Shown in pieces: positions 13,667-36,507 of a stretch of DNA of 64,000 nt; within the stretch, counting starts at the first letter, position 1, and each line of letters starts with the position of its first letter. This stretch comes from a bacterium. GTDB taxonomy: Bacteria > Hinthialibacterota > Hinthialibacteria > Hinthialibacterales > Hinthialibacteraceae. The DNA lies in contig CAXXSM010000100.1 of NCBI GenBank assembly GCA_963663405.2, positions 1-64,000 of the forward strand. Direction: 5' to 3'. The notes under the pieces were generated by a model that saw only the letters and a list, made by a program, of their open reading frames with translations, did not search any database and was not told the DNA's origin. Position numbers and translations under genes: made by a program.

Positions 13667-13827
13667 AAAAATTTTTAGAATTATAACATCTCAATATTTG
13701 AAATGACCAAGCCACTATTACTAACAAAGATTACATTTATGATGGAATTTAGCTATGAATTACTTCGTTTTATCGAACTGGACTATTGCTGAGAATCCGT
13801 TACACAACATGAGATGGAATACATTTT

Positions 13828-14866
13828 TCACAATTTATCAATATCTTCCCTCAATCGTTGGTCATTAAGGTGCGCATATCTCTGTGTTACTTGCAGTGTT
13901 TTATGACCCATCAATTCGCGAAGAGAATGAATTCCAACGCCCTTCTGAGCAAGGTGAGCGCCAAAGGAGTGCCGTAATCCATGAAGCCCTAGATCTTGTC
14001 GAATACCGAATCTTTCACCTGCGATCCGCCGAACTTTCTCCCACGGTTTACGGATATCTGCACGCGCTGAGCCATCAGGATTTTTTACAACTACTCCAAT
14101 ACGGACGTTCTTCGGGGAACCGACGAGAGGATATCAAGCAATTTGGGATGGATTGGAACCCCTAGGAATTGTTTATTCTTCCTTGTATCGATTATGATTC
14201 TACCTGAATCAATTTTGATCTCATCCCACTTTAATCTAATGATTTCTCCTTTTCTGAATCCGCCATATCTAGCTAACGCAACAGTCAAGTATATAGGCTC
14301 ACCACATTCCTTTGCTATTTCGAGCAATTTATCGCACTCGCTTTCAGTAAAAAAACGTGGCGGTTTAATCTCTAATTTTAGATGTTCGATTTTGGGAGGA
14401 GTCCAATCATTTAGGTCTTCCCAAAAATCGGAGGCTTTTTTTAGCATGGACAGTAGAACACCGATATACATATTAATACTCCGCTTTGATAATCCACGAT
14501 TAATTAAGTATGTTTGATATCCTTGTAATTGTTCCTTCCCCAATTTATTTATTCGAATATCGCAATCGAAGTATTTTTAATATTTTCATTCGATATAATT
14601 CTTTTGATTTCGTAGGTCCATTTTTTTGATCTTCTTTCCTTTGACCATTCTAAGTATTTTTCCGCAATTTCCTCTAATATTCTTTTCGTACCAATGGTCT
14701 TTACGACTGATCCATGACTCATTTTTTTATCAAAGTCACGCTTTTTGACAAGCGCGATACGTCGATCAGATGTTTTTGTGCTTTTGTATGAACTTTTTCT
14801 AGTGAGAGGATGTGTGAATCGGATTTGCCAGTAAGGAGATCCATTACGTTTGATAAGCGTGGACAT
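13828..14866 (-). CDS. Tyrosine integrase of island 1 (frameshifted)
   Basis: N-terminal arm-binding YWQIRF segment and GFRKGEII. The C-terminus, read manually, has HGLRHSF...LMGH...TQRYAHL. Adjacent to att copy 15105. Confidence 0.85.
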
Positions 14867-15104
14867 GTTACAAACCTCCTAATAGGATTTTACTATATGA
14901 TATTTCTCAAACACTTTTTAGAAGAAAAATTGTCTGATATTTGTCTGATTCTATACGTAAAAAATGGTTGAATAGACGTTAAGTGATGTCACTAAACGGT
15001 AATTCTATTATAATAAATAAGTGCAAATAATTGAGATACTTATACTTTAAATACTATAGGATAAGTGGGTTAAATATTCAAGAGGTAATAATAGGAACAA
15101 CCGA

Positions 15105-15152
15105 CTTCTAAGCAGTGGGCCGCAGGTTCGAGTCCTGCCGGGCGTATACTGA
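15105..15152 (+). repeat. att site: 3' half of tRNA-Arg(TCT), copy 1
   Basis: CTTCTAAGCAGTGGGCCGCAGGTTCGAGTCCTGCCGGGCGTATACTGA, identical to 29991-30038. Has anticodon loop CTTCTAA and T-arm GGTTCGAGTCC; no 5' tRNA half upstream. Confidence 0.9.
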
Positions 15153-15530
15153 TTTTTCTGGACTTACGAATCCTCCTCCAAGTGACAAAAAATTCCAAGC
15201 TAACTCAGAGCTAACAAGTTTCTTCACTCCGTGGGCATTGCGCCTGCTTGGCGAGGATGTCGCGGGCGCGAGGAGCGCGTTCACTCTCTAAACCTTGGGG
15301 AACTGGTTCCCCAGGGTTTTTCCTCTTTCCCCTACCACCAGCCTGGCCGTCCTCATTCTTACCAGAGAGTTGTTTCCCCCCGCCTCGGCTTCGAGGAGGG
15401 TGACGCGCTGAATCGTTGTGTGGTATAAGTTATGGTGAGTTGGTGTTGATGGTATCTGGTTCAAAGGCGGATTACAGCCGAATAAGAAATCCAATTTTTA
15501 AATCGCGATTCAAATCACTAAGGTTAAAGC

Positions 15531-16342
15531 ATGACATCTTCTTTTTGCGCTTATATTGATGAATCAGGAGATGAAGGTTTTCGGTTTTAGAACGAACTTA
15601 TCCACACAAAAAAGCAGCGATTGGTTTGTTTTAAGTGCTTTCATCACTCGAAAACAGAATGATTTGGAAACTGTCAAATGTATCGACCAGATTCGTAAAG
15701 ATTTTGACATTAACCCTAAAAAGCATGTCCATTGGAAAAAAACTGAAACACCCTCAAAAAGTACGTTATTCTCAAATTCTTGCTAGTCTTCATGCTCGAA
15801 CAATTGGAATTTGCGTTCACAAACCTTCTCTTTTAGAACCGGAGAAATTTAAAGAACCTTATCGCCTTTATTTTTATGCCGTTCGGTATTTGATGGAACG
15901 TTTATCTTGGCTTGCTCGTGATAATCATAATCCAAGAAAATGGGGTGGAGATGGAACAATTAGTATTCTATTTTCTAATCGGCAAGGAATGCCATACGAT
16001 GAAATGAAAAATTATCTGAGACTTTTAGAAATTAAAAAAAACAACAATCAAGATATTCGAATAGAGTTTCAGCATACGCCTTTAAATAAAATTAGCACTC
16101 AAACGCCTGGTCGTTCGATGGGATTACAGTTAGCAGACGCTTGTGCTGGAGCATTTTTCAATGCCTTAGAACGTGACTTATTTGGGAATACAGAACCGCG
16201 CTATATCGAATTATTGAAGCAAATTTTATATAAACACGATGGAACATCTTGGGGTTATGGAACAAAAATAGTACCAAGAGAAGCCATTAACAATTTGAAG
16301 GAAGAATCCAGTCTTGAATGGTTGTGGAGGATGAAGGAATAA
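15531..16342 (+). CDS. DUF3800-family protein (RNase H-like), frameshifted
   Basis: N-terminal AYIDESGDEG read from ATG 15531 and C-terminal GLQLADACAG. Confidence 0.8.
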
Positions 16343-16348
16343 AAAAAA

Positions 16349-16433
16349 AGACAGATCCCAGGTCGTAGGAGCCCACGCACTAAGCGCTGCCGTCCTGAGG
16401 ACGACCTACGATAAATCCTGCGCATATCTGTCT
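16349..16433. ncRNA. Structured RNA candidate downstream of the DUF3800 gene
   Basis: Nested stems AGACAGAT/ATCTGTCT, CAGG/CCTG, TCGTAGG/CCTACGA and inner CGTCC-TGA-GGACG. Confidence 0.65.
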
Positions 16434-16509: not shown

Positions 16510-16764
16510 TCACTCCCCCCACACCTCCGGCGGAACCGGGCCGTACTCTTTTTCGAGGATATTCAAAACCATACGCCAATGTTTCGGCGTATATCGCCTA
16601 ATCCAACTCTCAAGCGTCTGTTTTGGAACGTCCAAAACCTTTTCGAGCGTTAGAATGCTCTGCCTGCGTGACGGCTCACCAATGTTATCCAGATACCAGC
16701 GGAATTTACACTGAAATTCATTTTTCCCGTCCTCCGGGCGTAGTGTTGGTTCATTCGGTGTCAT
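16510..16764 (-). CDS. Small HTH repressor candidate
   Basis: LEKVLDVPKQTLESWIR HTH-like segment; divergent from the rightward operon across operator palindromes. Confidence 0.55.
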   Translation of the reverse strand: MTPNEPTLRPEDGKNEFQCKFRWYLDNIGEPSRRQSILTLEKVLDVPKQTLESWIRRYTPKHWRMVLNILEKEYGPVPPEVWGE

Positions 16765-19001: not shown

Positions 19002-19652
19002 ATGGCTAAAGTGAAGTTAGAAACATTGTGTTTCCGATGCAACGAAGAAACCGCCAACAAGATTCGCAAACGCGCTGATGAGATGGGACTTTCGCTTTAC
19101 TCATATCTCAAGCAACAGGCGTTGAGCCGCGAGCCATTGACTCAAGCGGCGGAGGATTATATCCGCGATATCGCCCGTGGCGTTGCGGAACAATTCGGAG
19201 GAGAGCCGGATATTAATTTCGCAAAAACGATGATACTGAATGACGCTACTGCTGGTTATCTGGCTCATTTCCATGAAGAGGGAATCGACTCACTCGGAGC
19301 GCGTCCGTTTCTATTTTTTAAACAGGGCAAACCACTTAGCCCAGAGGAACAGCAAGATGCGATGATAAACCGGCGTGTTGAAGAAATCCGGCGGCGGAAA
19401 AAAGAATTGGAAGAATGGAAAACGTATGCGAACGCATGCCGGAAACAATCGGAAGACTGGCAGGCGCTAACGATGGAGGTCGTGCGTGAATCAACTAAAG
19501 ACAATCCAAATATGGAGGCTATCGCCAACCGATTCAATTTGAAAGCAATTCCGGAACCAGCGGAAGAGGAGCCAACTTCACCGGCTGAGCCGGAACCGGA
19601 CGCGATTAAAAACCGGTACAATCCACCGAAAATGGCAAAAGTGAAATCATGA
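19002..19652 (+). CDS. Hypothetical with RHH-like N-terminus
   Basis: LCFRCNEETANKIRKRADEMGLSLYSYLKQQAL ribbon-helix-helix pattern. Confidence 0.55.
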   Translation: MAKVKLETLCFRCNEETANKIRKRADEMGLSLYSYLKQQALSREPLTQAAEDYIRDIARGVAEQFGGEPDINFAKTMILNDATAGYLAHFHEEGIDSLGARPFLFFKQGKPLSPEEQQDAMINRRVEEIRRRKKELEEWKTYANACRKQSEDWQALTMEVVRESTKDNPNMEAIANRFNLKAIPEPAEEEPTSPAEPEPDAIKNRYNPPKMAKVKS

Positions 19653-20125: not shown

Positions 20126-21469
20126 ATGGTACTATCAATGTCGGTTGATGGCAATGGAAAAAATGAGAAATCCGGAGGAAAGTTAAGCCGGATCAATCCG
20201 CCTAAGCGCACGATTTTCCTGCCTGCCTCCACTTTTGAGACAATATGCTCTTATCCAATCACAAAGGGCGCGATCCTCTTTTATATAGCGATTAGATCAT
20301 ACGCGAATAGTGAGGGCTGGTGCAATCCATCCATAAAAACTTTCGCCGAAATGCTCAGCTGTGACCCGCGATCAATTAAGCGCCATATCCAAGAATTGTG
20401 TGAATATGGATTGCTCTCTGTCGAGGTGAATAAAGGGCATTCATCGAATGATTATTATTTGAATCTCGAACCAAAGAGAGGGGACAATTTTGTCACCTCT
20501 GTCACGGCAAAGAGAGGGGACATTTTTGGTCAAAAAACCGGAAGAGAGGGGACAAAACGTGTAAAGAGAGGGGACATTCCTGGTAAGGCTAACAATATAA
20601 ACAGTAATAGAACATCATCAGTAAGAACAATTGATGATGATGAACTAAATCCCGCGGGAAAAACACGCAACAGCAACAGCATTCCAAACCTGGATTTTCT
20701 TTCAAAAAACAAAAAAGAACTGGCTCTCAAATGCTGGAAAATACATCGCTCGAAATGGGGATCGGCGGAAGAATTTTCAGATACGCTCCGGCGTATTTCA
20801 GAAACGGAATCAGACGAAACGCTCCACGGCGCATTGGAAGATAATTCTGCTCACAGAAATCCACAGGATAGTGAACGTCTTATGGCGGCGGTATACCGTC
20901 TCCGGAAAATCTATCCATTAAATCCAAGCAAGAAGAGATTCGGCGAATGTGAGAAAGCGAAAGAAGAAGATATCCGCCGGGCTGAAGAGGAAGAGCGAAA
21001 ACGCTTCCAAAAGGCGCGTGAAAAGGTCCAACGTCACCGGCGCGAGGGCTGGACGGATGACGAAATAATCCGCAACGATTTTAGCCGATGGGAGAAAGAC
21101 GAAGTCCTGGAATGCGCTATATCGAAAGAAGCGATTGAAAAGCATTATGCAGAATTGGAAGCATGGGAAGAGGAAAAGCGAAAAGCCAGAGCCGCGGCAA
21201 AAAGAAAAGACCAAGAAGAAAAGCGGATTCTCCGGCTCGAAAAGCAAAAACAAGAATACGCCGTATTCATCGAAAAATTGGAAGGCATAACTGAAGCTAA
21301 GGCCGCTTTCCAATTGCGTTATCGATTCAACCTCGACGGTAAGTCAATTACTCCACAAACCACCGAAGATAAAAAACGGCTTATCGAAATTCTTGAGCGC
21401 ATAGGTATGCGCTTCGACGTGAATAAGAGTGGCTGTCCGGTTAATTGGGTTGTTCCGCAGAAAGGATAG
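20126..21469 (+). CDS. Replication initiator candidate (N-terminal winged HTH) with internal iterons
   Basis: LFYIAIRSYAN..GWCNPSIKTFAEMLSCDPRSIKRHIQEL..GLL...SSNDY, typical of phage Rep HTH domains. Confidence 0.75.
   Translation: MVLSMSVDGNGKNEKSGGKLSRINPPKRTIFLPASTFETICSYPITKGAILFYIAIRSYANSEGWCNPSIKTFAEMLSCDPRSIKRHIQELCEYGLLSVEVNKGHSSNDYYLNLEPKRGDNFVTSVTAKRGDIFGQKTGREGTKRVKRGDIPGKANNINSNRTSSVRTIDDDELNPAGKTRNSNSIPNLDFLSKNKKELALKCWKIHRSKWGSAEEFSDTLRRISETESDETLHGALEDNSAHRNPQDSERLMAAVYRLRKIYPLNPSKKRFGECEKAKEEDIRRAEEEERKRFQKAREKVQRHRREGWTDDEIIRNDFSRWEKDEVLECAISKEAIEKHYAELEAWEEEKRKARAAAKRKDQEEKRILRLEKQKQEYAVFIEKLEGITEAKAAFQLRYRFNLDGKSITPQTTEDKKRLIEILERIGMRFDVNKSGCPVNWVVPQKG
20474..20576 (+). 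repeat. Iterons (putative origin)
   Basis: Four exact AAGAGAGGGGACA copies at 20474, 20510, 20542 and 20564. Confidence 0.85.
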
Positions 21470-21667: not shown

Positions 21668-22198
21668 ATGGACTTAATCCGTACCACATTTGAAACAAGC
21701 CGCCTGATGGAATTCTTTGATGAAAAAGAATTAACAAAACAAATCGGCCACAATCGAGGAATGTGGCCGGTTGCGCTCCTAAAAGAATTAATTGACAACG
21801 CGCTGGACGCTTGTGAGAGCGCCGGAGTCAATCCGGTTATCGAAGTCTATTTGGAGAAGAATAGTCTCTCTGTCCAGGATAACGGGCCGGGTATTCCACC
21901 GGAGACAATCGAGAAATCACTTGATTATAAAATTCGCGTATCGGATAAGAATAAATATGTCTCACCAAGTCGAGGTCAACAAGGAAACGCCTTGAAATGT
22001 GTGTGGGCTGCTCCGTTCGTTGCTACAGGATCTGGAATTATCGAGATAGGCACTAGGGGCCAATTACATGAAATCGATGTTTCACTGGATCGATTGACGG
22101 AAGAGCCGGAGATTGGCCACACAATCACCGATGATTTTGTAAAAAATGGCACTTTTGTAAAAATCCATTGGCCAGAGATAGCATTGCTCTCAGGATGA
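21668..22198 (+). CDS. GHKL ATPase domain resembling the topoisomerase VI subunit B N-terminus
   Basis: KELIDNALDACE (N box), QDNGPGI (G1), SRGQQGNALK (G2) and GT (G3); only 176 aa. Confidence 0.8.
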   Translation: MDLIRTTFETSRLMEFFDEKELTKQIGHNRGMWPVALLKELIDNALDACESAGVNPVIEVYLEKNSLSVQDNGPGIPPETIEKSLDYKIRVSDKNKYVSPSRGQQGNALKCVWAAPFVATGSGIIEIGTRGQLHEIDVSLDRLTEEPEIGHTITDDFVKNGTFVKIHWPEIALLSG

Positions 22199-22663: not shown

Positions 22664-22951
22664 ATGAGCGTAGCATTCGAGCATTCAGGAACTTCATTAC
22701 ATTTGATCGTTGATTTGAGCGCTGTTGAGAGTCTCAGCAACCAGGACGGCGGGACGGTCCACGTGGGCAGCATGCACGGCGAGATTAACGAGACGTTAAC
22801 GAAAGAGGGCTATACGATAGATTTATCTGTCCGCCGGGCACTCACTCCGAGCGAGCGCGAGCAGTACGGCGCTGACCTCCAACTTGATGCGGCTCCAACG
22901 GCCAAGCGCGGAGGGGGAGGGCGGTCCAAATCTCCACAGCCTCAAAAATAG
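22664..22951 (+). CDS. Hypothetical protein upstream of terS
   Basis: AGGAG RBS; no HNH motif seen. Confidence 0.5.
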   Translation: MSVAFEHSGTSLHLIVDLSAVESLSNQDGGTVHVGSMHGEINETLTKEGYTIDLSVRRALTPSEREQYGADLQLDAAPTAKRGGGGRSKSPQPQK

Positions 22952-22995
22952 GAACCGTATAGCCTCGCATCGCGCACACAACCGCAATTCCGGTT
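22910..22995 (+). other. Putative cos packaging region
   Basis: GGGGGAGGGCGGTCCAAATCTC...GAACCG...CGCGCACACAACCGCAATT directly upstream of terS, resembling HK97-type cos regions. Confidence 0.5.
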
Positions 22996-23024
22996 AGTTT
23001 AGCAATTTGTAAAGGAATATAGCA

Positions 23025-23480
23025 ATGCCAAGACAACCAGTACCTACCAACCTAAAGATCCTGCGCGGCAATCCAGGCAAGCGCGCAATCAACAAAAATG
23101 AACCGCAGCCGAGCGCGGACGGCGTCAAGTGTCCGTCCTGGTTATCACGCGACGCCAAGGCCGAGTGGCGGCGTGTGGCGCCGGAGTTAAAGCGGCTCGG
23201 CCTATTGACAGTCGTTGACGTGTCCGCGCTGGCAATGTATTGCGAGTCATATTCTCAATGGCGCGAGGCCGTCCGGATTATCGAGCGCGAGGGCCAAACG
23301 TATTCACATGACGGACTCATCCGCACTCATCCGGCGTGTCACGTGGCTAACAATGCGGCGCGGACGGCTAACCTATTCGCCGGGCAGTTCGGAATGACGC
23401 CATCGGCGCGAACGAAATTATCTATCGAGCCGCCACAGCAACCGAGTTTGGTTGACAAATTTTTGAACCGGAGTGGGTGA
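23025..23480 (+). CDS. terS: Terminase small subunit, P27 family
   Basis: PTNLKILRGNPGKRAIN..EP, PSWLSRDAKAEWRRV..EL and FGMTPSARTKL. Confidence 0.92.
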   Translation: MPRQPVPTNLKILRGNPGKRAINKNEPQPSADGVKCPSWLSRDAKAEWRRVAPELKRLGLLTVVDVSALAMYCESYSQWREAVRIIEREGQTYSHDGLIRTHPACHVANNAARTANLFAGQFGMTPSARTKLSIEPPQQPSLVDKFLNRSG

Positions 23481-23481
23481 T

Positions 23482-23748
23482 ATGGACGGCCTAATTTCAC
23501 AGAGCCAAGTCGAGGACCAACTCGGTATTAATAAGCTCGCGCTGGACACGCTCCGGAACTTAGGCGTCCTCATTCCGGTTGACACCGGCGACGGTGAGCC
23601 GATGTACAGGCAAAGTGACGTCAGTCCATTTCTATTTTATCGATGCGTGTACGTTGACGTAACGCTTGAGCGGGTCCGCGCAATTACAGCGGCGCAAACC
23701 GAGACGCCGGAAACTTACAATCCAATGCGGGGTGTAAATAATGGGTAG
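23482..23748 (+). CDS. Small MerR/excisionase-like HTH protein
   Basis: ISQSQVEDQLGINKLALDTLRNLGVLIP...MYRQSDV. Confidence 0.5.
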   Translation: MDGLISQSQVEDQLGINKLALDTLRNLGVLIPVDTGDGEPMYRQSDVSPFLFYRCVYVDVTLERVRAITAAQTETPETYNPMRGVNNG

Positions 23749-25430
23749 ACAGACTATCGGCCAATTGGTTATTGACTTACAGGCGCAGACGTCCAAATTT
23801 CATAGCGATATGAATAAGACGTCACGTATGTGGAATAACAAATTGGATTCCATGCAGCGGACAGCCAAAAATTTTGGCACTGCCATCAAGGCGTATTTCT
23901 CATTTCAGGCGCTAAAAGGTCTATCCAATTTTGTGCAGGATAACATCGCCTGGGCGTCCTCCATGGCCAAGGTAGCCGATACCGTTGGTCTCTCGCTGGA
24001 TAAATTCCAAGGCCTCTCGATGATCGTAAAGGAGCTATCCATCGAGCAAAGCACCTTCGAGCGCGCCATACAGCGAATGACGCGCCGGATCGGCGAAGCA
24101 GCCGAGGGAACCGGGACGGCAAAAGACGCATACTCCAAGTTAGGCATCCAGATTACAGATAGCGCGGGCAAGGTCCGGGATACGTTTTCCATTTTTCTCG
24201 ACGTGGCGCGCCATTACAAAAAATTAAAAACAGAGGCGGATGAACTAAACGTATCCAATCAACTATTTGGCCGTGGGTTTGAGGAGATAAATCTGCTGCT
24301 CAGGCAGGGCGCGCCTGCCATCGAAACGCAGATCAAAAAATTCGCGCGCATGGGATTGATAATCAAAGATCCGCTCATACGCCAAGCGGAATTAGCGGAC
24401 GATTCGCTCACAGAAATGAAAGACAGTGTTAGCGCGCTCGGCAAAGAATTCTCGCTTGTATTGGCTCCGGCGATTAAGACAGCGGCGGACGCCATGAGAA
24501 CCAATGTAGGCGCAATGCGGCTGCTGTTCTCAAAGGCAACCTGGAATGACTGGCTCACGGGCAATCCGCTAAAAACGGCGATCATGTACAACGTTATGTC
24601 ACCGGCTGAAATGTGGGAAAAATATTACTATGGCGGCAAAGGGAAAAAACTACTCGCCTACTCCGGGCTTCGGCTCGTCTAAAGGCGATGACGATTACAT
24701 GGACGTATTTCCACCGGCGCAGGTAACGAAAACACGCGCCGATTGGATGAATGACACTGTTCGCCGGATGAAAGACAATATGGAGTCTCTCACCAATGAA
24801 ATGCAAATGCAGGTTGACGTCATTCGGGATGAGATGCGCTCGGAGCGGGACATATACAATCAGCGATTAGAATTACTCAATCAGGCGCGCTCTATTAACA
24901 TACTCAACGCCGATGAATTTAATACTATGTCCGAGCATGTAAATAACGTATTCAACGGCATGGTAGAGGCCAGCCAGCGTTCTGCTAGATTAATAGAGAG
25001 CGGTATATCCGGCGCATTGGAATCAATTGCCAATAACGATCTTAATAATTTCGTAAATAGTTGGATACGCTCATTTGACAAAATCTTTTTTGATTTGGCC
25101 GGGCGGAATATTATCAATTTATTAGAACCAACTATGTTAGGCGCAGGGCGGGTTCCTAAACTTCGCATTCGGCGGCGTGAGAGCCGCAGGCGGGCCGGTT
25201 ATGGGCGGCGCGTCCTATCTAGTCGGTGAGCGCGGGGCCGGAGTTGTTCACACCGAATATCAGCGGACGGATAACACCGCATGAGCAGATAAAAGGCGCG
25301 GGCGATATCAACATTGACACCGGCGGCGCTCCACTATTCACCGTTACAAGCGGCCATGTAGGGCCACAGAGCGCGGCGCAGTTTAGGACAGGACTTCCTC
25401 GAATTCATCGAAGACGCGAGGCGTAAACGC
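23741..25430 (+). CDS. Short tail tape-measure-like protein (about 560 aa, frameshifted)
   Basis: N-terminal IGQLVIDLQAQTSKF, helical core (ADTVGLS...AYSKLGI...LFGRG) and C-terminal GGPV..YLVGERGPELFTP..SGRI motif, spread over ORFs 23741, 24630 and 25226. Confidence 0.8.
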
Positions 25431-26659
25431 ATGACTATTATACAACGCATAAGACAATACATATGGCCGGAGCGGCGCAGCGAATATGAGAGCGCATGGT
25501 ACAGCGGCGATCCATTGCCGGAGCGGTTCGGCGCGGCTGGAATTCGTGTCAACGCTGACAACGCCGTCCAACTAACGGCGGTTTTTCGCGTGTGTGAAAA
25601 ATATTGAGTGAGACGGTCGCGTCACTTGCCATTGATCCTATACAAGCGCCTACCGGACGGCGGCAAAGCGCGCGCGGTGGAACATCCGCTATACAAACAC
25701 GCTCCATGATAGTCCAAATCGTTGGCAGGACGTCGTTAGAATTCCGCAAGTTACTGCAGAGTCACTTATGTTTGCGCGGGAATGGCTACGCCGAGAAAAT
25801 ACGGCCAGGCGGACGGCTGGAATTGATACCGATCCATCCGGATACCTGCACTCCTAAAATGAGTGACAGCGGCGTCATAACGTATGAGGTACAGACGCAG
25901 GAACAGCGGCGGACGTTACCGCAGAATAAAATACTGCACTTGCGCGGCATTGGCAGTAACGGCCTTGTAGGTTTATCACCAATCGAGATATGCAGGGACG
26001 CAATCGGCGCTGGTATGGCAGTACAGCAGTATGGCAGCCGGTTTTTCATGAACAACGCTAGGCCATCGGGAATTATCGAGTATCCGGGCGTCATGCAGGA
26101 TAAAGAGGAAATTGCAGCGTTTAAAAAGTCGTGGCAAGAGGCGCAGACGGGCGCGAATCAACATAAGACGGCCGTCCTTGAGCGCGGCATGACTTACAAG
26201 CCGATAGGTATATCCAATGAGGATAGCCAATTCCTTGAGACGCGGAAATTCAGCGTTGAGGAGATAGCGCGGATATACCGCATACCAATGCATCTTTTAC
26301 AGTCATTGGACAAGTCGAGTTTTAATAATATCAGTCATCAGTCGATGGAATTTCTAACATATACAATGATTCCTTGGTTCCGGCGGTGGGAATCAGTGTT
26401 AGCGCGCGATTTACTAACAGCCGAGGAGCGCACAGAGTATTTTTTTGAATTCCTTGTCGATGGTTTCCTGCGCGGGGATATCCAGACACGCTATAACGCA
26501 TACACCAAGGGCCGTCAATGGGGCTGGCTCTCACCTAACGACGTTCGCCGAATGGAAAACATGAATCCGATCGACGGCGGTGACGAGTATCTTACACCGC
26601 TCAATATGCAGGCAATAGGACAGCAAGATAACGGCGCTGACAATGCCGATAAAAACTAA
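25431..26659 (+). CDS. HK97-family portal protein (frameshifted 5' end)
   Basis: LRGNGYA, ILHLRG...GLSPI, FFMNNARPSG, DSQFLETRKF..EEIARIYRIP and PNDVRRMENMNPIDGGDEY. Confidence 0.93.
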
Positions 26660-26681
26660 CATTTTACCGAGGTAAAAAAAA

Positions 26682-28017
26682 ATGAATGAATTACAGAAAT
26701 TGCAAGCAAGACAGCGTGAAATTGCGCAGCGTATCATTGACATTAATGAGGCGGCTGTTTTGGAATCACGGGATTTATCCGAGGATGAAAAAAAGGAATG
26801 GCGGGATCTCCGGGCCGAGGAAAAAAAAGAACGCTGAGCGTATCAAGAAACTCGAAACCGAGCAGCCAGCCGATGAGCGCAGCGTAGGTATCGAGGCGCT
26901 GAGCGCGCAGACGAATGGTGAGAGCCGCCAACGGGCGGCTAACCTGGATCGCCGGAGTTATCGCGGGATGTTTTGCCGAAATGGTGAACAACTCTCCAAC
27001 GATGGCTTTTCCTCATTCGAAGAATGGATGGCATGTGTCCACAGTGGCCGTCCAGACGAGCGTCTGCAGTATCGATCGATGGGCAGCGATATTCCATCTG
27101 CAGGCGGTTTTCTCGTACCGGATCAATTCGTAGCCGAAATGTTGGATACCGGCATTGAGAATGAAATTGTCCGTCCTCGCTGCACTATCTGGCCGATGGT
27201 AAGTGACACCGCGCGCGCGCCGGGCTGGGATGGCGCGGATCACTCCAGTTCGTTATATGGCGGGTTTGCCGGGACGTGGCTCGGCGAGGGCGAGACGGCC
27301 ACCGAGGTTGACGCGCAGTTTCGTTCCATTGCGCTTACGGCGCACAAATTGGCAGTCTTTACATCCGCGTCAAGCGAGTTGGTACAAGACAGTTTTCTCT
27401 CGTTTGATAGCATCATGAATGACGGTCTGCGCAATGCGCTGTCATGGTTCCTCGATTATGCGGCCATCAATGGGACCGGCGCGGGCCAGCCGCTCGGATT
27501 GGTCAATAACAATTCTGTTGTGTCAGTGGCCAAAGAGTCAGGACAGGCCGCGTCAACTATCGTGTGGAACAACATCTGCAAGATGTATGCGCGTATGTGG
27601 CCAAGTGGCCATCAAAATGCCATCTGGATTGCCAACAATACTATCATTCCACAATTGTTGGCGCTTACCATTCCGGTTGGTACCGGCGGAAGTGCAGTCG
27701 GTCCTAACATCGGCCATCCAGTAATGAAAGAGGATAGTGGTAGTTTTTCACTACTCGGCAAGCCGATTTATTTCACAGAAAAAGCTCAATCTCTGGGCAC
27801 AGCGGGCGATATTATGTATGTCGATCTCTCACAATACGTCATGGGATTGCGAAAAGAGATCATTATCGAAAAGTCCAACGCCGTCCATTGGACAAGTGAC
27901 AAGCAAGCCTACCGCGCCATCATGAGGGCCGATGGTATGGGCAAGTGGAATAGCGCCATCACACCGAAAAACGGCGATACGCTTAGTTGGTGCGTAACGC
28001 TGGCGGCAAGGTCGTAA
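26682..28017 (+). CDS. HK97-fold major capsid protein with N-terminal delta domain (one frameshift)
   Basis: Coiled-coil leader, then AGGFLVPDQF, WLGEG, SSELVQDS, GTGAGQPLG and LLGKPI. Confidence 0.92.
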
Positions 28018-28023
28018 GCTAAC

Positions 28024-28449
28024 ATGAGGACTTACATTCCGCTCATAGCGTTGTTAGTCATTCTCGCGGGCGCGGCCTATGGCGCTCATTGGTCATGCAC
28101 AACAACCGAGGATATATCCTGGTCCGTGCGAAAAATTACATGGTCCTGGATATCCAACGCAACCGGCGAGGTGGACGCGCAGACAACCGCGTATTTCTCC
28201 GGCGCGCCACTCGGTTTCATTGCCGAGCCAGCGGGCGGGGTATCCGCGCCATCGGCTGACTATGATATCTCGATCACCGATGAGAATGAATACGACTTAC
28301 TGCAGTCGAGCGGGGTGGATATGTCAGCGGCGACTAGCGTCTATATTTTCGATGCGACGTTGACGCCGATATCGAACGATAGGCTTACATTGCATATCAG
28401 AGCTGCCGGGAATGCGAACAGCGGCACGGTGGTTTTGTATCTGCGATAG
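28024..28449 (+). CDS. Small beta-rich protein with hydrophobic/signal N-terminus
   Basis: 141 aa, 6 bp after the capsid stop; MRTYIPLIALLVILAGAAYG leader. Confidence 0.65.
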   Translation: MRTYIPLIALLVILAGAAYGAHWSCTTTEDISWSVRKITWSWISNATGEVDAQTTAYFSGAPLGFIAEPAGGVSAPSADYDISITDENEYDLLQSSGVDMSAATSVYIFDATLTPISNDRLTLHIRAAGNANSGTVVLYLR

Positions 28450-28667: not shown

Positions 28668-29824
28668 CTAGCCGTTTTCCGCTTTCGCCTGTACGTCCGC
28701 AAACGATATGATTTTCGATCCATGTTTCCCCAACGCCTCACGCAGCGGGTCCTGTGCTAGATGCGCGTAGACTTCGGTTGTGCTGAGCGTGGATTGATTC
28801 AACGCCTTGCCAACGAGTATCAGCGACTCCCCGGAGGACGCCAGCCAGGAGCCTACCGTCCTGCGCAGATCATGGATTCGCAGCGTTGGCATTCCGGCGC
28901 GGTTGCGGATGCGATGCCATTGGCGCTTTGGAAATATCGCCCAGTGTTTCGATGGATCGGGGCCGGGGAATATCCATTTACAATTATCGATTCGGGGAAT
29001 CATTTCGAACATGCCGAGAGCGGCAGTGCTGAGCGGCAAATAAAACGGGCGGCCTGCCTTTGTATCGTCCAACTTGAGAATCCTTTGCTCACGATCTAAG
29101 TCTTTCCATTCTCGCCGCATTAATTCACGATTCCGTAGGCCGGTTAAGAGGTACAGCCACAGTCCGGCGCGTACGACGGGATTCCACTCCTCATTAATCG
29201 CGGCGGCCAATTTAGGTAATTCGTCCGGCGTTACCCACACGTCCCGTTTTTCCTCTCGATTTTTCTTTATCCGTCTCGCCGGGCTGACGTTATCCTCTTT
29301 CAGGAAACCTTCGTTGATTGCGTATGAGTGTATGCGCGAGACGAGAGAGACAATTCTATTGGCTTCGATGGGCGCGGTTTTCGATATACGATCATGTATT
29401 TTTTCTGATATCCGGGCGGGTGATCGAATCGGCTTTTTTCTTTCCAAGTTCGGGGCGCAGGTGTTTTTTCAATCCGGCGGCGGTCCTGAACGCCGGTTTT
29501 CAATTTCGATGCGTGGCGGGTTAAATAATCGTCAAGAATATCATTGAATGTTACCGATGGCTTGCCGCGCTTATCTGGATTGTTTACCGGCGGCAATGGT
29601 GAGATTCTTTATTCCAGCAATCTGACGCGCCTTCTCCGGCGTGATATTCGGATATTTTGCGATTGTGATCCATTTCAATTTTCCTTCCCACCGATAGCAG
29701 TAGACGAAAGACTTTTGACCGGATTTAAAAAACACGCAGACCGAAATGTGCGGTTTTCCGTATCCCAGATTATGCCAGGTGTTTTTACTGACTCGCAGAG
29801 GTGAGTTGTTATTTTTTTTTTCAT
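28668..29824 (-). CDS. Tyrosine integrase (P4-like, arm-binding domain) of island 2, frameshifted
   Basis: KSFVYCYRWEGK..WITIAKYP arm domain; LTGLRNREL, IHDLRRT and TEVYAHL. Confidence 0.9.
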
Positions 29825-29990
29825 AACAGTGGGCCTCCAAAAAAATAACAGTGGTTCTAACAGTGGGCCGTTTGAGCTAACACCAAGCTAACACATATGT
29901 CTATTTCTGTCCATATCGGAAAATGTAAAAGTAAAAATTTCCTAGGAAAAACGGGGATTTGTATATGTCTGTCCATGTAGGGGCGATTGC

Positions 29991-30038
29991 CTTCTAAGCA
30001 GTGGGCCGCAGGTTCGAGTCCTGCCGGGCGTATACTGA
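29991..30038 (+). repeat. att site: 3' half of tRNA-Arg(TCT), copy 2
   Basis: Identical 48 bp to 15105-15152. Confidence 0.9.
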
Positions 30039-30111
30039 AAATTCTAGACTTACGAACATAGATTTGGGTAGCGGTAATCTCCAAAGTAGCGTCACGGTAG
30101 CGTTTGAAATC

Positions 30112-30142: not shown

Positions 30143-30320
30143 ACTCTTAGATCTTTTCCCAGTTTGAATATAATAAATCAATTCATCTCGGCAGGATCAG
30201 AAATTACCATTCAAACAAAATTCAAAAATCCCCGCCAGCTGCGCTAGCGCAGCAAAAAGACAAAAGCAAAGAGTATAAAGTGTCAAAGTGCAAAGGGTAA
30301 AAGCGATACAGCAAAAAGCG

Positions 30321-33300
30321 CTAATAAGTCCGGGAATACACAACTCGCAAACCTATGACGTCGTCCCTGAGATCTGGGGCCCTGTCGAACCGGTACGCCG
30401 ATCGGCAGTTCTCTGGATTGTAGAACCAGGAACCGCCCCGAAACACACGAGCTGCCCCACGGGGTGAATCAATCCAAGCGGAACCATCTTGAGGCGCCTC
30501 TTTGTAATTCTCATGCCAATCATCTTCACACCATTCCCGCACATTTCCGCTCATATCACAAAGCCCCCATAGATTTGGGGATTTTTCTACCTACTTGCTT
30601 CGTTTCCTCTTATCACATTATTGTCCGGATACCACGCATAATTCCATATTTCTCGATAATCATCATCCTCTCCCCAATAAAAGCGTGTCTTCGTTCCCGC
30701 CCGGCATGCGTATTCCCATTCCGCTTCGCTTGGAAGGCGAAATGTTCCTTGACCGAGTTGATTCAATTCAGTAATGAATCTTTGACAATCATCCCAGGAG
30801 ACAGATTCAACTGGATGATCGGGTTTCCCTTTAAATTCAGAAGGATTCTCACCCATCACAGCTTTCCATTGCGCCTGGGTGACGGGATATTTACCAAGAT
30901 AACAATCATAATCTATTTTGACTATATGCTGTGGACTTTCATCATCATATCGACCTTTCTCATTCTTTGGACTTCCCATCTTGAATCTACCCTTGGGTAT
31001 ATGAACAAATTCGATAGGAATCGATTCATTTGGCAAATTCGGTAATTGAATGATGATGGTGTCCACGTTCATGTATTTCGAATGCGTCTCGTTTCTTAAT
31101 TTGGATTTGAGGAACTTTCGTTTGCTCATTCCACGGTTCAATCAAGAGTGTTTCTTCCAGCCATCTTCGTTTCTCATCTGCAACTGAACATTCCGTAAGC
31201 AGACAATCCATTAACAATTCCGATGATTGCATGTATTGGATAATATTCGACAAATCTTCTGGAACTTGCAATGGATTCGAGAAATCAATATCAACGTGTG
31301 GATCAAACGATCGTTTTTCATTTTTTCTAAATAGGCTCTGGACAAATTCACGTATTTCATCACTTCCCGAAGTTGCGAATAAAGCAAGCATTTTATTGAC
31401 GGAATGAGGATTTGAATTGCTGGAACAAATACAACCTTCAAGATTCTGAAGAAGCCCAATCACTTCATCATTGGCAAGTTTTGAAATTCCCCGGCGCATA
31501 GAAATCAAAAATGAGTATGGATCGCTTAGTTTCTTCCGTTATCAATAAAAAAAACTTCACGCCATCGCTGTTCCCGCATATGCCGTTCAATAATGGAATC
31601 AAGATTCTGGGGATGTTCAACAATCCACAACGCGGTTAAATACTCATGGAAAGTGAGATGAGAGAAGGAATAGATATGCCTAGCGCGTTCAACCAACAAA
31701 CCATGATGGCTTTCAATGGAACAAAGCAAAGTTCGACTATCAGTCAGTGCAATTCCTTTTTCAAATTGAAAAGTTTGTTGAAGGTAATGGGAAATATTAT
31801 TTTCCAGAGATCTCCGTTTCATAAAAATAGTGTTCTTCATTAAAAACTTTGATACGCCAATTCTGTCAATAATGAAATTTTAATCTCTTCTGTGAACGAC
31901 TCTACAACATCAGGCCGTACGATCCCTCTTGTTAAATCCCATTCACGTATTAACAAATCGAATGTTTCTCGATATAAATCAGCGCGGCTGGATGGAAACC
32001 GTTCTTTTTCAGAATTAGAAAAGACCCAACATAATAATGTTAGAAGCAATGGATTTGTAGCTAACTCTAGAAGAGATCGATTCCTATTAATTTCATCATA
32101 ACACTTTTGTGCTTTTTGGGGATTCTTTTTAAACCAGTTTTGTATAAATGTTCTGATCTGATCTTCATTAAAGTCCGCCACTTCAACTAAAGTAAATTTT
32201 TCAAAGGTTCTGTTATAAGCGGCAAGACGACAGCTAATGATAAAACGGTTTTTGTTATATCGTTTTGTAAACAAACGAATGGTCTGCACGGCTTCAGCTA
32301 TTGTACTAAATGAAACCTCATCCAAACCATCCATAATAACTACACAATTCCCTTTTCTTAGATGCTGGCTGGTAAACTGCATTGCATCTTTAACATCTGC
32401 ATCTTCAAATTGTTTGGAAATAAATTCAAGTATTGTGTTTTTGCTATCAGACCATTCTTTTAAACTTATGAATATGGGTATCTTTTGTTTGTGAAGTTTT
32501 CCTTTAAGTATCTCAATGGTTATATATTTAAAAAAAGTAGTTTTCCCCGCTCCCGGTTTTCCTAATACCATCAAATGGTCATCGTTATCTTTTAATATTT
32601 CTATCCCTTCTACGGATTTATTTGAAGACGGATATTGACGCTGCTCGTTTGATCGAAACTGTTTCTCTAGTTCACTTAACTCAACGGATTGCTCTTTTGT
32701 GATCTTCTCAAGAATATGAACTTTAACATATATCGAATCCAAGGATATATCTTTATCCATTCCTAAAATCTGAATCGAACTATTGTTCTCATAAATCTTA
32801 TTTTTATAGGTTTTTAAGTCATGCTCAAAAACTTGCGTTTCTAAAACTGGTTCGTGAGTAAAAAAAATCTTTGAATCGATATTCGATGTATATAGTTTTA
32901 TCTCTCCAAGAGGTGGTATTTCTATTTGATGAGTCATAAAACGATATAAAGTAATGTACTCTCTTTGAATAGATACATTAAAATATCCATAAATCTGCAT
33001 GAATTCTGGAATATATAAATCCCATTCCGCATGAAAGACAATCGGAATGTATTTTTCATTTAATGATTTCTGTTTATATAATTTATAATTAATATTTTGT
33101 AATTCTCTAAAACTTCCACGTTTATCAGATTTAGAATATTGTTCTGAACATACTATTAATACAAAATCCGCTTTTTCGATTTGTTCAGACATCCAATCGA
33201 GCCATCCTTTAGGTGGGAACGGCTCATATTGGTCTATCCAACAATCTAAACCATCATATCGAAGTTGATTCGCAAATGACAAAACAAGTTCACTATGCTC

Positions 33301-33399
33301 ATTTGTTTCATGGCAATAGCTGATAAATACTCTTATTTTTTTGGGATAATTTTCCATTTTTTTGTTCCAAGACATTTTCCTAGAAATTCTCTTATTCAA
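30321..33399 (-). CDS. DGR target 1: SEFIR/TIR - NACHT NTPase - FGE-sulfatase (CLec fold), split by about 4 frameshifts
   Basis: VFISYCHE..HSELVLSFANQLR..G.DCWIDQY; Walker A GKPGAGKTT, Walker B MDGLDEV, NPLLLTL, FSHLTFHEYLTA; FGE motifs YPVTQAQW, RLPSEAEWEYACRAG, MSGNVREW, RGGSW. Joining the pieces is inference. Confidence 0.8.
30331..30455 (-). repeat. DGR variable repeat VR1
   Basis: Aligns ungapped to TR 33619-33743 with 16 mismatches, all at TR adenines (coding strand). Confidence 0.97.
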
Positions 33400-33618
33400 G
33401 TTTCATCACAAAATAGAGGGCCGCCTAAGCAGGACGTTCGGCCAACACCTACCAGCCCCGCCCAGGCCTTTCAATCTTTGTCCGGCAGCCTCGAACGGCC
33501 CTCATTGTTCGAACGGCTGCGCGATGCGGGAATATACCTATGGACTCCTCTTAGTACGCTCAAGGCATCCGTAAATGACTTGACTCTGACCGTGAGAATA
33601 CCATTCTCACAAGGAGCG

Positions 33619-33743
33619 CGGGAATACACAACTCGCAAACCTATGTTGTTGTTCCTGTTATCTGGGGTCCTGTTGTTCCGGTTCGCCGATCGGCAGTTTT
33701 CTGGATTGTTGTTCCAGGAACCGCCCCGAATCACACGAGCTGC
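33619..33743 (-). ncRNA. DGR template repeat (TR)
   Basis: AAC-rich; conceptual translation [34 protein letters not shown]; matches both VRs except at adenines. Confidence 0.97.
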
Positions 33744-34813
33744 TCTTTCCTGATATATCCCCTTTCTTTACAATTTTTGCGTTTTCGAATAAAGACGTAC
33801 GTAATCCCCATGAATCGGCATGTGAGACATGACCGATCCAACTGACAACCGATTGCGTCACATCAAACAATGCGATTTGCTTCTCACGATATTGAACGCG
33901 CAATTTCTTGAATCTTTTCAAAAACCGGTGGCCATTGCCATTCCGCACTAATACATGACTGGGAAAAACACGATAACCCAGAAAATCAATCCCATCTCTA
34001 ACCGGAACAACATGCGCGCAGTTTTCATGAATGGATAAATGGTTCTGATTCAACAAATAGTCAGAGATTTCGTTTTTGATTTCATACAATCGTTGTTTTG
34101 AATGATGCAGGACAAGCATATCATCCACATAGCGCAGGTAGGCTTTCACTCCCAAGGTCTCTTTCACAAAATGATCGAATGGATTCAGATAGACGTTAGC
34201 AAAAAATTGGCTGGTTAAATTACCGATTGGAATCCCCAAAGGCCCGTCAAAATTCAATAGATAATTCCCACGATCGTCAATCGGGTGAGGCTCACGGTAG
34301 CTGCGCAGTATATGACGTATTAACCATAAGATGGATTGATCGCCGATTTTCCGGGAGAGAATTGAGAATAATAAATCCTGTCGAATACTCTGGAAATACT
34401 TTCGTATATCTATTTTGATGGAGTACGGATAGTGTTGGATCAACGTTTTCAATCGATTCACCGCCGCATGAGTCCCTTTACCTTTACGGCATGCGTAGGA
34501 ATCAGAGATAAACGATCGCTCGAAAATCGGTTCGATGATATTGCAAAAGGGCATGATGAACGATACGATCACGATAGGGAGCGGCGCTGATGGTTCTTTT
34601 CTTCCCTTCATTAATGACAAATTCCCGATACCCTCCATGTTGATACGTCTTTGTCTCTAATTCACGCTGTAACCGTAAGATCTCTCGCTCAAAATTGAGG
34701 TTAAATAGACTCACTTCAAAGCGGAATCGCTTCCCCTTTTGCGCTTTTTTGGACGCCAGCAATAAATTTTGAAAATCCCTTAGTTGGGGATAAAGGTTTT
34801 TATAACGTTTCAT
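33658..34813 (-). CDS. DGR reverse transcriptase (one frameshift near 34550)
   Basis: [44 protein letters not shown] (DGR-type SQ), YLRYVDD and GIDFLGY. Confidence 0.95.
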
Positions 34814-35154
34814 GCTTTCGCCTGCTGCTTGATCCAGCCTCCCAACATAGATCCCACTTCATCTAAAATTTCAGAGATATACTTGTATCGGCGGAGATCA
34901 ACAAATTTAAGATCTTTAGCCAATCTCGCCAAGAAACGGAATTTCTCCAAATCTAAATTCGCGCGTTTCAGTAGAGCAATTTTCGAGCGTGAATACGAAG
35001 CTTCCACCAAAAGATCCAAGATCTCCAACAATACATTTTCCATACGGGAGCCAATCGTATATCGCTTATTTTTGGGGAATTTTTCAATCAAAGGCATCAT
35101 CCAAAGAATGATGTCATACATTTTCTGCACGATAGCGGGGTGATTGCTTTTCAC
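34810..35154 (-). CDS. avd: DGR accessory variability determinant (four-helix bundle)
   Basis: GGAGG RBS plus GTG; [14 protein letters not shown]...[13 protein letters not shown]; ATGA overlap with the RT start. Confidence 0.92.
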
Positions 35155-35270
35155 GTGAATCCTCCAATTTAAAAAATATTCGCGAGCTGCGCTAACGCGC
35201 AGCAAAAAGACAAAAGCAAAAAGTATAAAGAGTCAAAGTGCAAAGGGTAAAAGCGATACAGCAAAAAGCG

Positions 35271-36507
35271 CTAATAAGTCCGGGAATACACAACTCGCAA
35301 ACCTAAGTAGTTGACCCAGCTAACTGGGGACCTGAAGAACCGGAACGCCGATCGGCAGCAGTCTGGATTGTAGTACCAGGAACCGCCCCGAATCACACGA
35401 GCGCCTCTACGGGGTGAATCAATCCAAGCGGAACCATCTTGAGGCGCCCCTTCAAAATTCTCATGCCAATCATCCTCACACCATTCCAGCACATTCCCGC
35501 TCATATCATAAAGCCCCCATGAATTCGGTTTCTTTTTCCCCACAGGATGTGTTTTTTGAGAAGAATTTCCAGTAAACCATGCAAACTGATTTATTTCTTT
35601 GATACTCAGGATCATCTCCCCAATAGAACCGCGTGCTTGTACCTGCCCGGCAAGCGTATTCCCATTCCGCTTCGCTTGGAAGACGGAACGTTCCTTGACC
35701 GAGATCATTCAATTTTTTGATGAAATTTTGACAGTCATCCCATGATACGCATTCGACTGGGCGATTTGTGTTTCCCTTAAAATTAGCAGGATTCTTACCT
35801 AAAACCGCTCTCCATTGTTTTTGAGTTATTGGATATTTCCCTAAATAGATATCATGAGGAATAGTCACTTGATGCTGCGGACTTTCATATTCAGATCTAT
35901 CTTTTTCTTTTTCCGGACTTCCCATCATGAAGGAACCTGCAGGAATTTTGCACAATAATAGAGGAACAGATTTACCTGTTGAACTGGGGATTTTAAATTC
36001 GATCTCGGAAGATTCATCTATAACTGGTTCGATTGATTTTAAAGGCGGTTCTACTATTGATGTAGTTGTATCCCTTTCAGGAGGTCCTTCTTCATCCGGC
36101 TTGTTTGGTTTGGAAGGTGTTCCGATTAATGATTGAATGGACTTGATAAGGTTATCAAAGTCTGTATTAGGTGTCCCCTTTTTCCAGCCGGTAAGATCAA
36201 CCGTTTTAAGATCTCTGAATCCAAAAGGAGGACGTACTTTTTCAATGAATATTGGCCTTAAAATATTTTTATTTAGACCTTCTCTTGCCTCTTCTTTTAC
36301 CCACTTGGATTTAATAGACGATTCTGACCAAAGCACGATAACACAATGGGTATTGTCAAGTTCAGCGTCGATAAAATCATAGATATTTTCTGCTATCGGG
36401 ACTTCTCGATCCCAAAAAACAGACCACCCCCGCGATTGCAATTCTTCAGCGATAACCTTCGCAATTGCAATATCGTCACTTTTATAGCTAATAAAAATAT
36501 CACTCAT
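35271..36507 (-). CDS. DGR target 2: TIR - linker - FGE-sulfatase (CLec fold), one frameshift near 35600
   Basis: MSDIFISYKSDD...VFWD...VIVLWSESSIKSKWVKEEA TIR; Pro-rich linker; FGE motifs through RGGSW...GLRVV. Confidence 0.9.
35281..35402 (-). repeat. DGR variable repeat VR2
   Basis: Aligns ungapped to TR with 19 mismatches, all at TR adenines. Confidence 0.97.

Follow-up and report, generated by a model that had tools for sequence, protein, structure and literature searches.

The window analysed in this study, i.e. the whole 64,000-nucleotide stretch at positions 1 to 64,000 (forward strand) of contig CAXXSM010000100.1 in assembly GCA_963663405.2, from a bacterium of the Hinthialibacteraceae, contains an integrated element which is bounded by two attachment (att) direct repeats of 79 nt with a 48-bp identical core. 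The repeats are spaced 14,886 bp apart, bearing out the 14.9-kb att-bounded element that had been proposed in a sequence-only reading of this DNA. Integrase and att-bounded chromosomal island, a feature of phage-inducible chromosomal islands (PICIs), occur in the element together with a module that runs, in this order, from a putative cos-like packaging site through the genes for a small terminase (terS), a possible MerR/Xis-like helix-turn-helix (HTH) protein, a tape measure protein (TMP), a portal and an HK97-fold capsid protein to that of a jelly-roll protein, without a large terminase gene (terL). The features on which the argument depends are as follows.

15092..15170, plus strand: left att repeat, a tRNA 3' half with the identical core at 15105-15152 (repeat search)
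22913..22983, plus strand: candidate cos-like packaging-site motif upstream of terS (motif profile, weaker in a pairwise scan)
23025..23480, plus strand: small terminase, P27 family (PF05119, E 1.9e-29; TIGR01558)
23482..23748, plus strand: 88-aa possible MerR/Xis-like HTH protein (Xis-like profile; Atlas neighbours)
23741..25434, plus strand: TMP of approximately 560 aa, divided among five frame pieces, its precise stop uncertain (PF10145, TIGR01760, PHROG, C-terminal motif)
25431..26659, plus strand: HK97-family portal with five breaks in its N-terminal part (PF04860, E 3.9e-92)
26682..28017, plus strand: HK97-fold major capsid protein with an N-terminal delta-like segment and one break near 26830 (PF05065, E 7.9e-41)
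28024..28449, plus strand: 141-aa jelly-roll protein with a hydrophobic N-terminal helix, of a conserved viral family (alignment-based fold)
28668..29840, minus strand: tyrosine integrase carrying an arm-binding domain, split into three open reading frame (ORF) pieces (PF00589 and arm domain)
29978..30056, plus strand: right att repeat, a tRNA 3' half with degenerate 5' part (repeat search)

Packaging, head and tape measure genes

Family matches confirmed that the terS, TMP, portal, HK97-fold capsid and small terminal genes follow one another in the order previously proposed, and the accompanying statement that the genes abut or overlap within about 25 bp also held, all junctions being 22 nt or less. 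Only 1 nt separates terS from the HTH gene, which overlaps the TMP gene by 8 nt, while the TMP gene abuts or overlaps the portal start and gaps of 22 nt and 6 nt precede the capsid gene and the last gene, respectively; purine-rich start signals accompany the module genes at these tight junctions. The GC content at third codon positions (GC3) is even over the module genes (0.57-0.64), with the exception of one TMP piece (0.49). At the DNA level the module gave six short matches in GenBank phages, all of which are confined to the portal gene.

The N-terminal 313 aa of the TMP match PF10145 (E 1.4e-11), TIGR01760 and PHROG TMP families (E as low as 9e-27), while a conserved C-terminal motif at 25168-25324 matches the TMP homologs P0165 and P0174. 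Since both conserved ends are matched, the five pieces represent one full-length gene of approximately 560 aa and the TMP-like ORF does not resolve as something else, an outcome for which the sequence-only reading had allowed. Its length is at the short end of the homologs, which were searched at 549 aa and above only and have a median of 743 aa, and its relatives are distant (20-31% identity). At 25380-25434 no stop codon intervenes before the portal start codon in the frame giving the best fit to the TMP C-terminal helix. A fusion of TMP and portal, although formally possible, was set aside, since a start signal of its own accompanies the portal and the neighbouring frame offers a 4-bp stop/start overlap; one more read error is the likelier cause of the stop-free run.

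Support for the proposed cos-like site was divided. A motif profile built from 11 related loci, with the window excluded, ranked 22913-22983 first in the 64 kb (E 0.013) and also matched the HNH-terS gap of a Klebsiella phage, a gap which we take to hold cos in HK97-like phages, whereas in a pairwise scan with the Klebsiella gap the same segment merely tied the best background tile (60 versus 60). We regard it, with moderate confidence, as a putative cos-like site. The small HTH gene is a comparable case in that the 88-aa ORF has no Pfam, PHROG or NCBIfam match, but was the best of the element's 297 six-frame segments against an Xis-like profile from related loci (E 0.008) and has HTH_17 and MerR_1 clusters among its Atlas neighbours at 0.91, which weakly suggests an HTH protein. 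Its assignment as a tail assembly chaperone was not supported, given that the Xis-like profile and the Atlas neighbours lean towards HTH.

With E-values up to 0.001, 699 relatives of the last gene's product were obtained; the protein resembles viral hypothetical clusters, with no match to the gene in GenBank phages; one of the 137 aligned family members matches a 'virion structural protein' family, and a homolog is located two genes after the capsid gene in one related locus (L016). Single-sequence folding yielded a poor model (pLDDT 47), while the alignment-based model is good (pLDDT 94.7) and displays a jelly roll after the hydrophobic helix. The structures that it matches in the PDB are generic jelly rolls (top Z 8.1, none above background), among them the capsid chain of phage GP4 (Z 7.2, root-mean-square deviation 3.1, 112 residues aligned) and the KHP40 cement protein (Z 6.7), and include no head-tail protein, though the list does not exclude one. 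From this model, a decoration- or cement-like role may be offered as a lead only.

Absence of terL, protease and HNH genes

The reported lack of terL, prohead protease and HNH genes was upheld by profile and tblastn searches of the element. Over the 297 six-frame segments a terL profile (15 sequences) reached a best E-value of 0.61, while profiles of HNH (from a 13-locus cluster) and of the protease domain (14 sequences) reached 0.31 and 0.77 on the element, respectively. Nothing significant was obtained in the element by tblastn with 24 reference proteins (six TerL proteins as well as protease, HNH, connector-region and other proteins), and no remnant of terL or protease emerged from the tblastn and profile searches. 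The window as a whole yielded no terL, protease or HNH gene either. Scanning of 28 ORFs produced no PHROG connector match and, besides the TMP, no tail, lysis or connector remnants. The family and PHROG scans of the element's ORFs gave no match to TAC or BhuB, proteins of the PICI-like elements (PLEs) of Vibrio cholerae, PLE sequences not being among those compared.

Relatives of the capsid

A genome scan, for which an alignment of 45 capsids and neither the portal nor the TMP served as query, identified 75 related loci in many phyla. Fifty of these loci measure at least 9 kb, and in 20 of the 50 the capsid gene is flanked by direct repeats of 19-60 bp located 8.6-11.4 kb apart, and in 19 of these 20 the repeat lies on a tRNA gene. 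The capsid relatives are small PICI-like elements, in none of which a tail module was seen. PHROG matches among 379 of their proteins (cluster representatives, mostly encoded on the capsid strand within approximately 6 kb on each side) include primases, initiators, Xis-like proteins and integrases, while TMPs were the only tail-class matches and one gp10-like gene represented the connector class. By profiles, the 20 bounded elements comprise six with terL and portal, five with terS only, two with a TMP (one of them weak) and seven with the capsid alone.

A TMP gene comes next after the capsid gene in L038, L048, L051 and L061, and probably in L031, with a portal or terL detected in none of these; L048 is att-bounded at 9,091 bp, and a TMP-like match in L022 (E 5.7e-10), which lies at a distance of 7 kb from the capsid, was left out of the counts. 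TMP capture thus recurs in this capsid family, and TMP-bearing satellites thereby extend to Burkholderiales and Acidobacteriota, and probably to Planctomycetota.

In a tree of 48 capsid sequences, covering 35 of the 75 loci and omitting capsid fragments below 300 aa, the capsid of the window falls within a clade of 40 rows (support 99/99 in a bootstrap that had not settled) that leaves six full phages or prophages outside; one small-element capsid (L046) also lies outside and is grouped with phage Dagobah. The clade joins capsid-only, terS-bearing, TMP-bearing and capsid-forming PICI (cf-PICI)-like elements across Bacillota, Thermodesulfobacteriota, Planctomycetota, Acidobacteriota, Chloroflexota and Pseudomonadota. 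The closest capsids (P0002, P0019 and P0030) come without genomic context. Branching within the clade does not permit independent TMP gains to be counted. A cf-PICI-like sub-lineage of the same clade carries HNH, terL, a protease-capsid fusion and a portal, terL and portal being found together in 13 of the 75 loci.

Six loci of Thermodesulfobacteriota and relatives (L023, L025, L029, L039, L043 and L047) are tRNA-integrated cf-PICI-like elements of 10-11 kb that encode HNH, terL, protease-capsid fusion and portal along with a conserved gene of approximately 210 aa; no separate terS was detected in them, and their TerL starts with a short basic segment which by eye resembles the N-terminus of TerS. 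Five primase-capsid elements (L003, L005, L006, L009 and L012) reside in a single genome, that of Acetivibrio mesophilus N2K1, where a cos-like motif precedes the capsid gene and an insertion sequence often follows it.

That the element is a satellite and not a trimmed prophage, as originally suggested, is supported by the membership of its capsid in a clade of 9-11 kb tRNA-integrated elements, the closest capsid relatives with genomic context not being trimmed full prophages, and by the consideration that a TMP gene cannot arrive between terS and portal by deletion alone. That the element is what remains of a full siphoviral prophage, or arose as a chimera of the assembly, would agree with the error-rich sequence and with the full-phage relatives that terS, portal and TMP each possess, but is very improbable: the capsid clade excludes full phages, a TMP gene upstream of the portal would need a rearrangement, the scanned ORFs retain no tail, lysis or connector remnants, and GC3 is even over the module apart from the one TMP piece. 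On balance we lean towards a PICI-type satellite that would form its own portal-nucleated head and a tail templated by its own TMP, with TerL, protease, neck and tail parts supplied by a helper.

The numerous relatives with little besides a capsid also bear on a different explanation, namely that this is an ordinary capsid-modifying PICI in which portal and TMP poison or divert the head and tail assembly of the helper and are not built into particles. The seven bounded relatives with the capsid alone, next to the five with terS and capsid only, imply that the capsid by itself suffices in this family, like the Ccm protein of SaPIbov5 (PMC8569155; here and below, published systems are described as in the accessible text of the cited sources), and satellites that interfere with tail assembly have been published (PMC11364771, PMC12987554). 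We nevertheless consider this explanation improbable, as the portal and TMP are full length with conserved termini and share one operon with terS and the capsid gene, and as the interfering protein of PLEs, Rta, is separate from the PLE TMP, which is structural (PMC12987554).

Mixed ancestry and frameshifts

The terS product is 37-45% identical to three phage copies, whereas of seven satellite copies three aligned, at 22-34% identity; the portal is 44-45% identical to two of three phage copies versus 37-42% to 13 satellite copies. Phage-sized contigs of 25-50 kb account for 27 of the 119 top portal relatives versus 5 of 119 capsid relatives (Fisher p 3.6e-5), a comparison which was counted by hand and is circumstantial. 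A capsid of satellite lineage has thus been joined to terS, portal and TMP of phage type, and the closeness of terS and portal to phage copies is to be expected if both must fit the TerL of a helper.

The TMP, portal, capsid and integrase genes are all frameshifted in this assembly. The 17 breaks examined (eight called by the aligner and nine by eye) all shift the frame in the same way (+1 class), five of the eight aligner-called breaks have a run of at least four identical bases nearby, and the aligned stretches of the broken genes contain no in-frame stop; the same kind of break affects a host-type nitrilase gene outside the element, at 41.7-42.6 kb. One-directional breaks in the absence of in-frame stops have the appearance of insertion-biased sequencing error.

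A number of observations weigh against a working satellite of the kind proposed here. A portal is present in 15 of the 75 loci, of which 13 also carry terL and the other two are cut off upstream, so that a portal without terL occurs in none of the 13 assessable relatives; portal and TMP coincide in none of the 75. The arrangement of the element is a singleton, and the earlier designation of a satellite 'type' is not sustained, the set of terS, TMP, portal and capsid being repeated in none of these loci. The element exceeds, at 14.9 kb, all 20 bounded relatives in size, and the third phage portal compared, that of Dagobah, is just 26% identical. terS, gap, portal and capsid stand in ordinary phage order, with HTH and TMP genes filling the terL slot. 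On the right side of the window proS, rseP, ribF, recO and xylB are full length while island genes are broken, an unevenness which decay could also produce, low coverage of the island being another option, and a topoisomerase VI-B-like gene of the element looks truncated. No tail chaperone was identified in the element, whereas PLEs carry their own, and no helper phage was found within the window. Phage-like terS and portal sequences in canonical order would also fit a defective or recently captured head module.

The main rival, unlikely in our judgement, builds on these observations and holds that the element is defective or transitional, derived from a head module of cf-PICI-like or phage origin (cos-terS-terL-portal-protease-capsid) that exchanged terL for an HTH-TMP cassette and shed its protease; the portal would be a non-functional leftover and the element would move, if at all, as an ordinary PICI. 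The canonical gene order, the singleton status, the constant association of portal with terL in assessable relatives, the phage-like terS and portal, the excess of 25-50 kb contigs among portal relatives, the concentration of breaks in island genes and the truncated topoisomerase VI-B-like gene all speak for it. They are countered by the absence of any terL or protease remnant, by the tight junctions with their start signals, by breaks that are one-directional and free of nonsense codons in the aligned parts, by the nitrilase gene broken likewise, and by the retention of both att sites, integrase and replication initiator (Rep).

Remainder of the element and its surroundings

The left arm of the element and the region to its right contain the following features.

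15533..16342, plus strand: DUF3800 gene (cargo), split over three frames, with approximate start (PF12686, E 5.8e-5)
16345..16432, minus strand: DUF3800-VII RNA motif (Rfam RF02967, 82 bits)
16510..16764, minus strand: 84-aa ORF, divergent from the rightward genes (no family match)
19002..19652, plus strand: protein with N-terminal NikA/MobA-like ribbon-helix-helix (PF21983, E 1.2e-6)
20126..21469, plus strand: replication initiator, HTH_36, O-like (phrog_270, E 8.6e-13)
21668..22198, plus strand: GHKL ATPase domain, topoisomerase VI subunit B-like, 176 aa, apparently truncated (family search)
30331-30455 and 35281-35405: two variable repeats of a diversity-generating retroelement
33619-33743: template repeat of the retroelement
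33658-34813: reverse transcriptase of the retroelement
34810-35205: Avd of the retroelement

The replication module consists of the O-like initiator, within whose gene three 21-nt repeats lie at 20472-20582, and no primase was recognised. At the left end of the element the DUF3800 gene and then the DUF3800-VII RNA motif represent cargo, and the 84-aa divergent ORF is, judged from position and by eye only, a possible repressor gene. The topoisomerase VI-B-like ATPase domain stands isolated and has no homolog among the 75 related loci. ORF 17451 gave a marginal PHROG endonuclease match (E 0.064), and PADLOC yielded no credible defence match on 14 ORFs of the element.

The att repeat sequence corresponds to a tRNA 3' half and occurs in two copies only within the 64-kb window. 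Neither copy is an intact tRNA, none was found elsewhere in the window and ARAGORN reported zero tRNAs in it. A second broken tyrosine integrase gene (13816-14866) is situated just left of the left att repeat, in the same orientation and beside a broken methyltransferase region (11.0-13.7 kb); the second integrase and the lack of an intact tRNA suggest a tandem island array. Right of the element lies the diversity-generating retroelement (30247-36507), in whose variable repeats 16 of 16 and 20 of 21 mismatches fall at template adenines and whose targets appear to be a TIR and FGE-sulfatase-like protein and a SEFIR-NACHT protein region. An intact IS1380 transposase gene is present at 5869-7284.

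Discussion

If the element is indeed a PICI-type satellite with a head and a TMP of its own, its excision and replication would be induced by a cos-type HK97-like helper siphophage. The element's portal would then nucleate a small procapsid of its own capsid protein, alone or, in an option modelled on SaPIbov5 Ccm, mixed with helper capsid protein, and the delta segment would be removed by a helper or host protease. TerS of the element may bind its own cos-like site and recruit helper TerL (and HNH), which would dock on the element's portal, whereupon helper neck proteins would close the head. The helper tail tube, chaperones and tip would, as in PLEs, assemble around the element's TMP; as tape measures specify approximately 1.5 Å of tail length per residue, the chimeric tail would be approximately 80-85 nm long. 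Since portal and TMP determine the head and the tail that a genome receives, ownership of both would steer helper parts to satellite particles.

Among known satellites, PICIs share with the element an integrase, a replication gene, a capsid homolog, terS, a cos-like site, a size of 9-15 kb and the lack of an own terL and protease (PMC10085698), and SaPIbov5 Ccm is cleaved although SaPIbov5 encodes no protease (PMC8569155). A PICI regulator (alpA, merR or stl homolog) may have its counterpart in the weakly matching 88-aa ORF. The element differs from PICIs in its portal and TMP, which are forbidden components, and in having a Rep initiator instead of a primase. cf-PICIs likewise have their own capsid, portal and terS (10.1101/2022.09.08.507074, PMC10085698) and putative TMP genes are present in some of them (PMC12987554, Extended Data Fig. 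10), which could include variants like the element. The latter, however, lacks terL, HNH, protease and recognisable head-tail proteins, and possesses at most six of the 11 cf-PICI core components, whereas the least complete class reported has nine.

EPIPs of Mycolicibacterium aichiense are small satellites that also carry terS, an HTH gene (weak in the element), a major capsid protein and a TMP, and their tails are longer than those of the helper (PMC12822802). The gene list in the text of that source names no terL and no portal, and EPIPs have a serine integrase, a head-tail adaptor and a stopper, while the element has a tyrosine integrase, a portal and no recognised adaptor or stopper. PLEs provide the one mechanism of a satellite TMP that has been tested: the TMP works with helper tail parts and is built into chimeric tails, its loss cutting transfer by 96-99.9% (PMC12987554). 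PLE virions use the helper's capsid protein, whereas the element has its own capsid gene, and PLEs encode TAC and BhuB and have a lytic myophage, ICP1, as helper (PMC12987554). The MulchRoom and MiniFlayer phagelets share an own portal, capsid and terS, but also encode terL, scaffold and adaptor and lack a primase, and the word 'tape' is absent from the accessible text (PMC10690885). The element would work like a PICI with traits of cf-PICIs and of PLEs and EPIPs, and is a member of none of these as defined.

A satellite-encoded TMP is no novelty, being already published for PLEs and EPIPs and, putatively, for some cf-PICIs (PMC12987554, PMC12822802). The exact gene set, seen once, is unreported in the literature searched, in which no description of portal, TMP, capsid and terS without terL was found, figures and several subscription papers lying outside the search; the accessible text of PMC13669383, 10.1101/2025.02.15.638363 and 10.64898/2026.08.12.739948 has no bearing on it. 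Given that the SatelliteFinder PICI model forbids portal and tail genes and its cf-PICI model expects most of 11 core genes (PMC10085698), this gene set would probably be missed by SatelliteFinder.

As a more far-reaching and tentative reading, to which we give less than even credence, the element may follow a functional satellite strategy that is absent from the papers searched, furnishing the DNA conduit at its two ends, through portal and TMP, in addition to the shell and TerS, with nothing but packaging ATPase, protease, neck and tail tube being borrowed. On this reading it would represent a single state within a capsid lineage that spans phyla and in which terL, portal and TMP modules are gained and lost; PICI and cf-PICI detection models alike would reject it, and such elements are possibly uncounted systematically. 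Satellite classes are defined by the virion parts that they steal, and the element falls between the known ones. If the proposed design is true, an own portal combined with a borrowed TerL would show the interface of portal and motor to be open to hijacking independently of the head, and the element would offer a clean system in which to establish the role of a satellite TMP outside the Vibrio PLEs.

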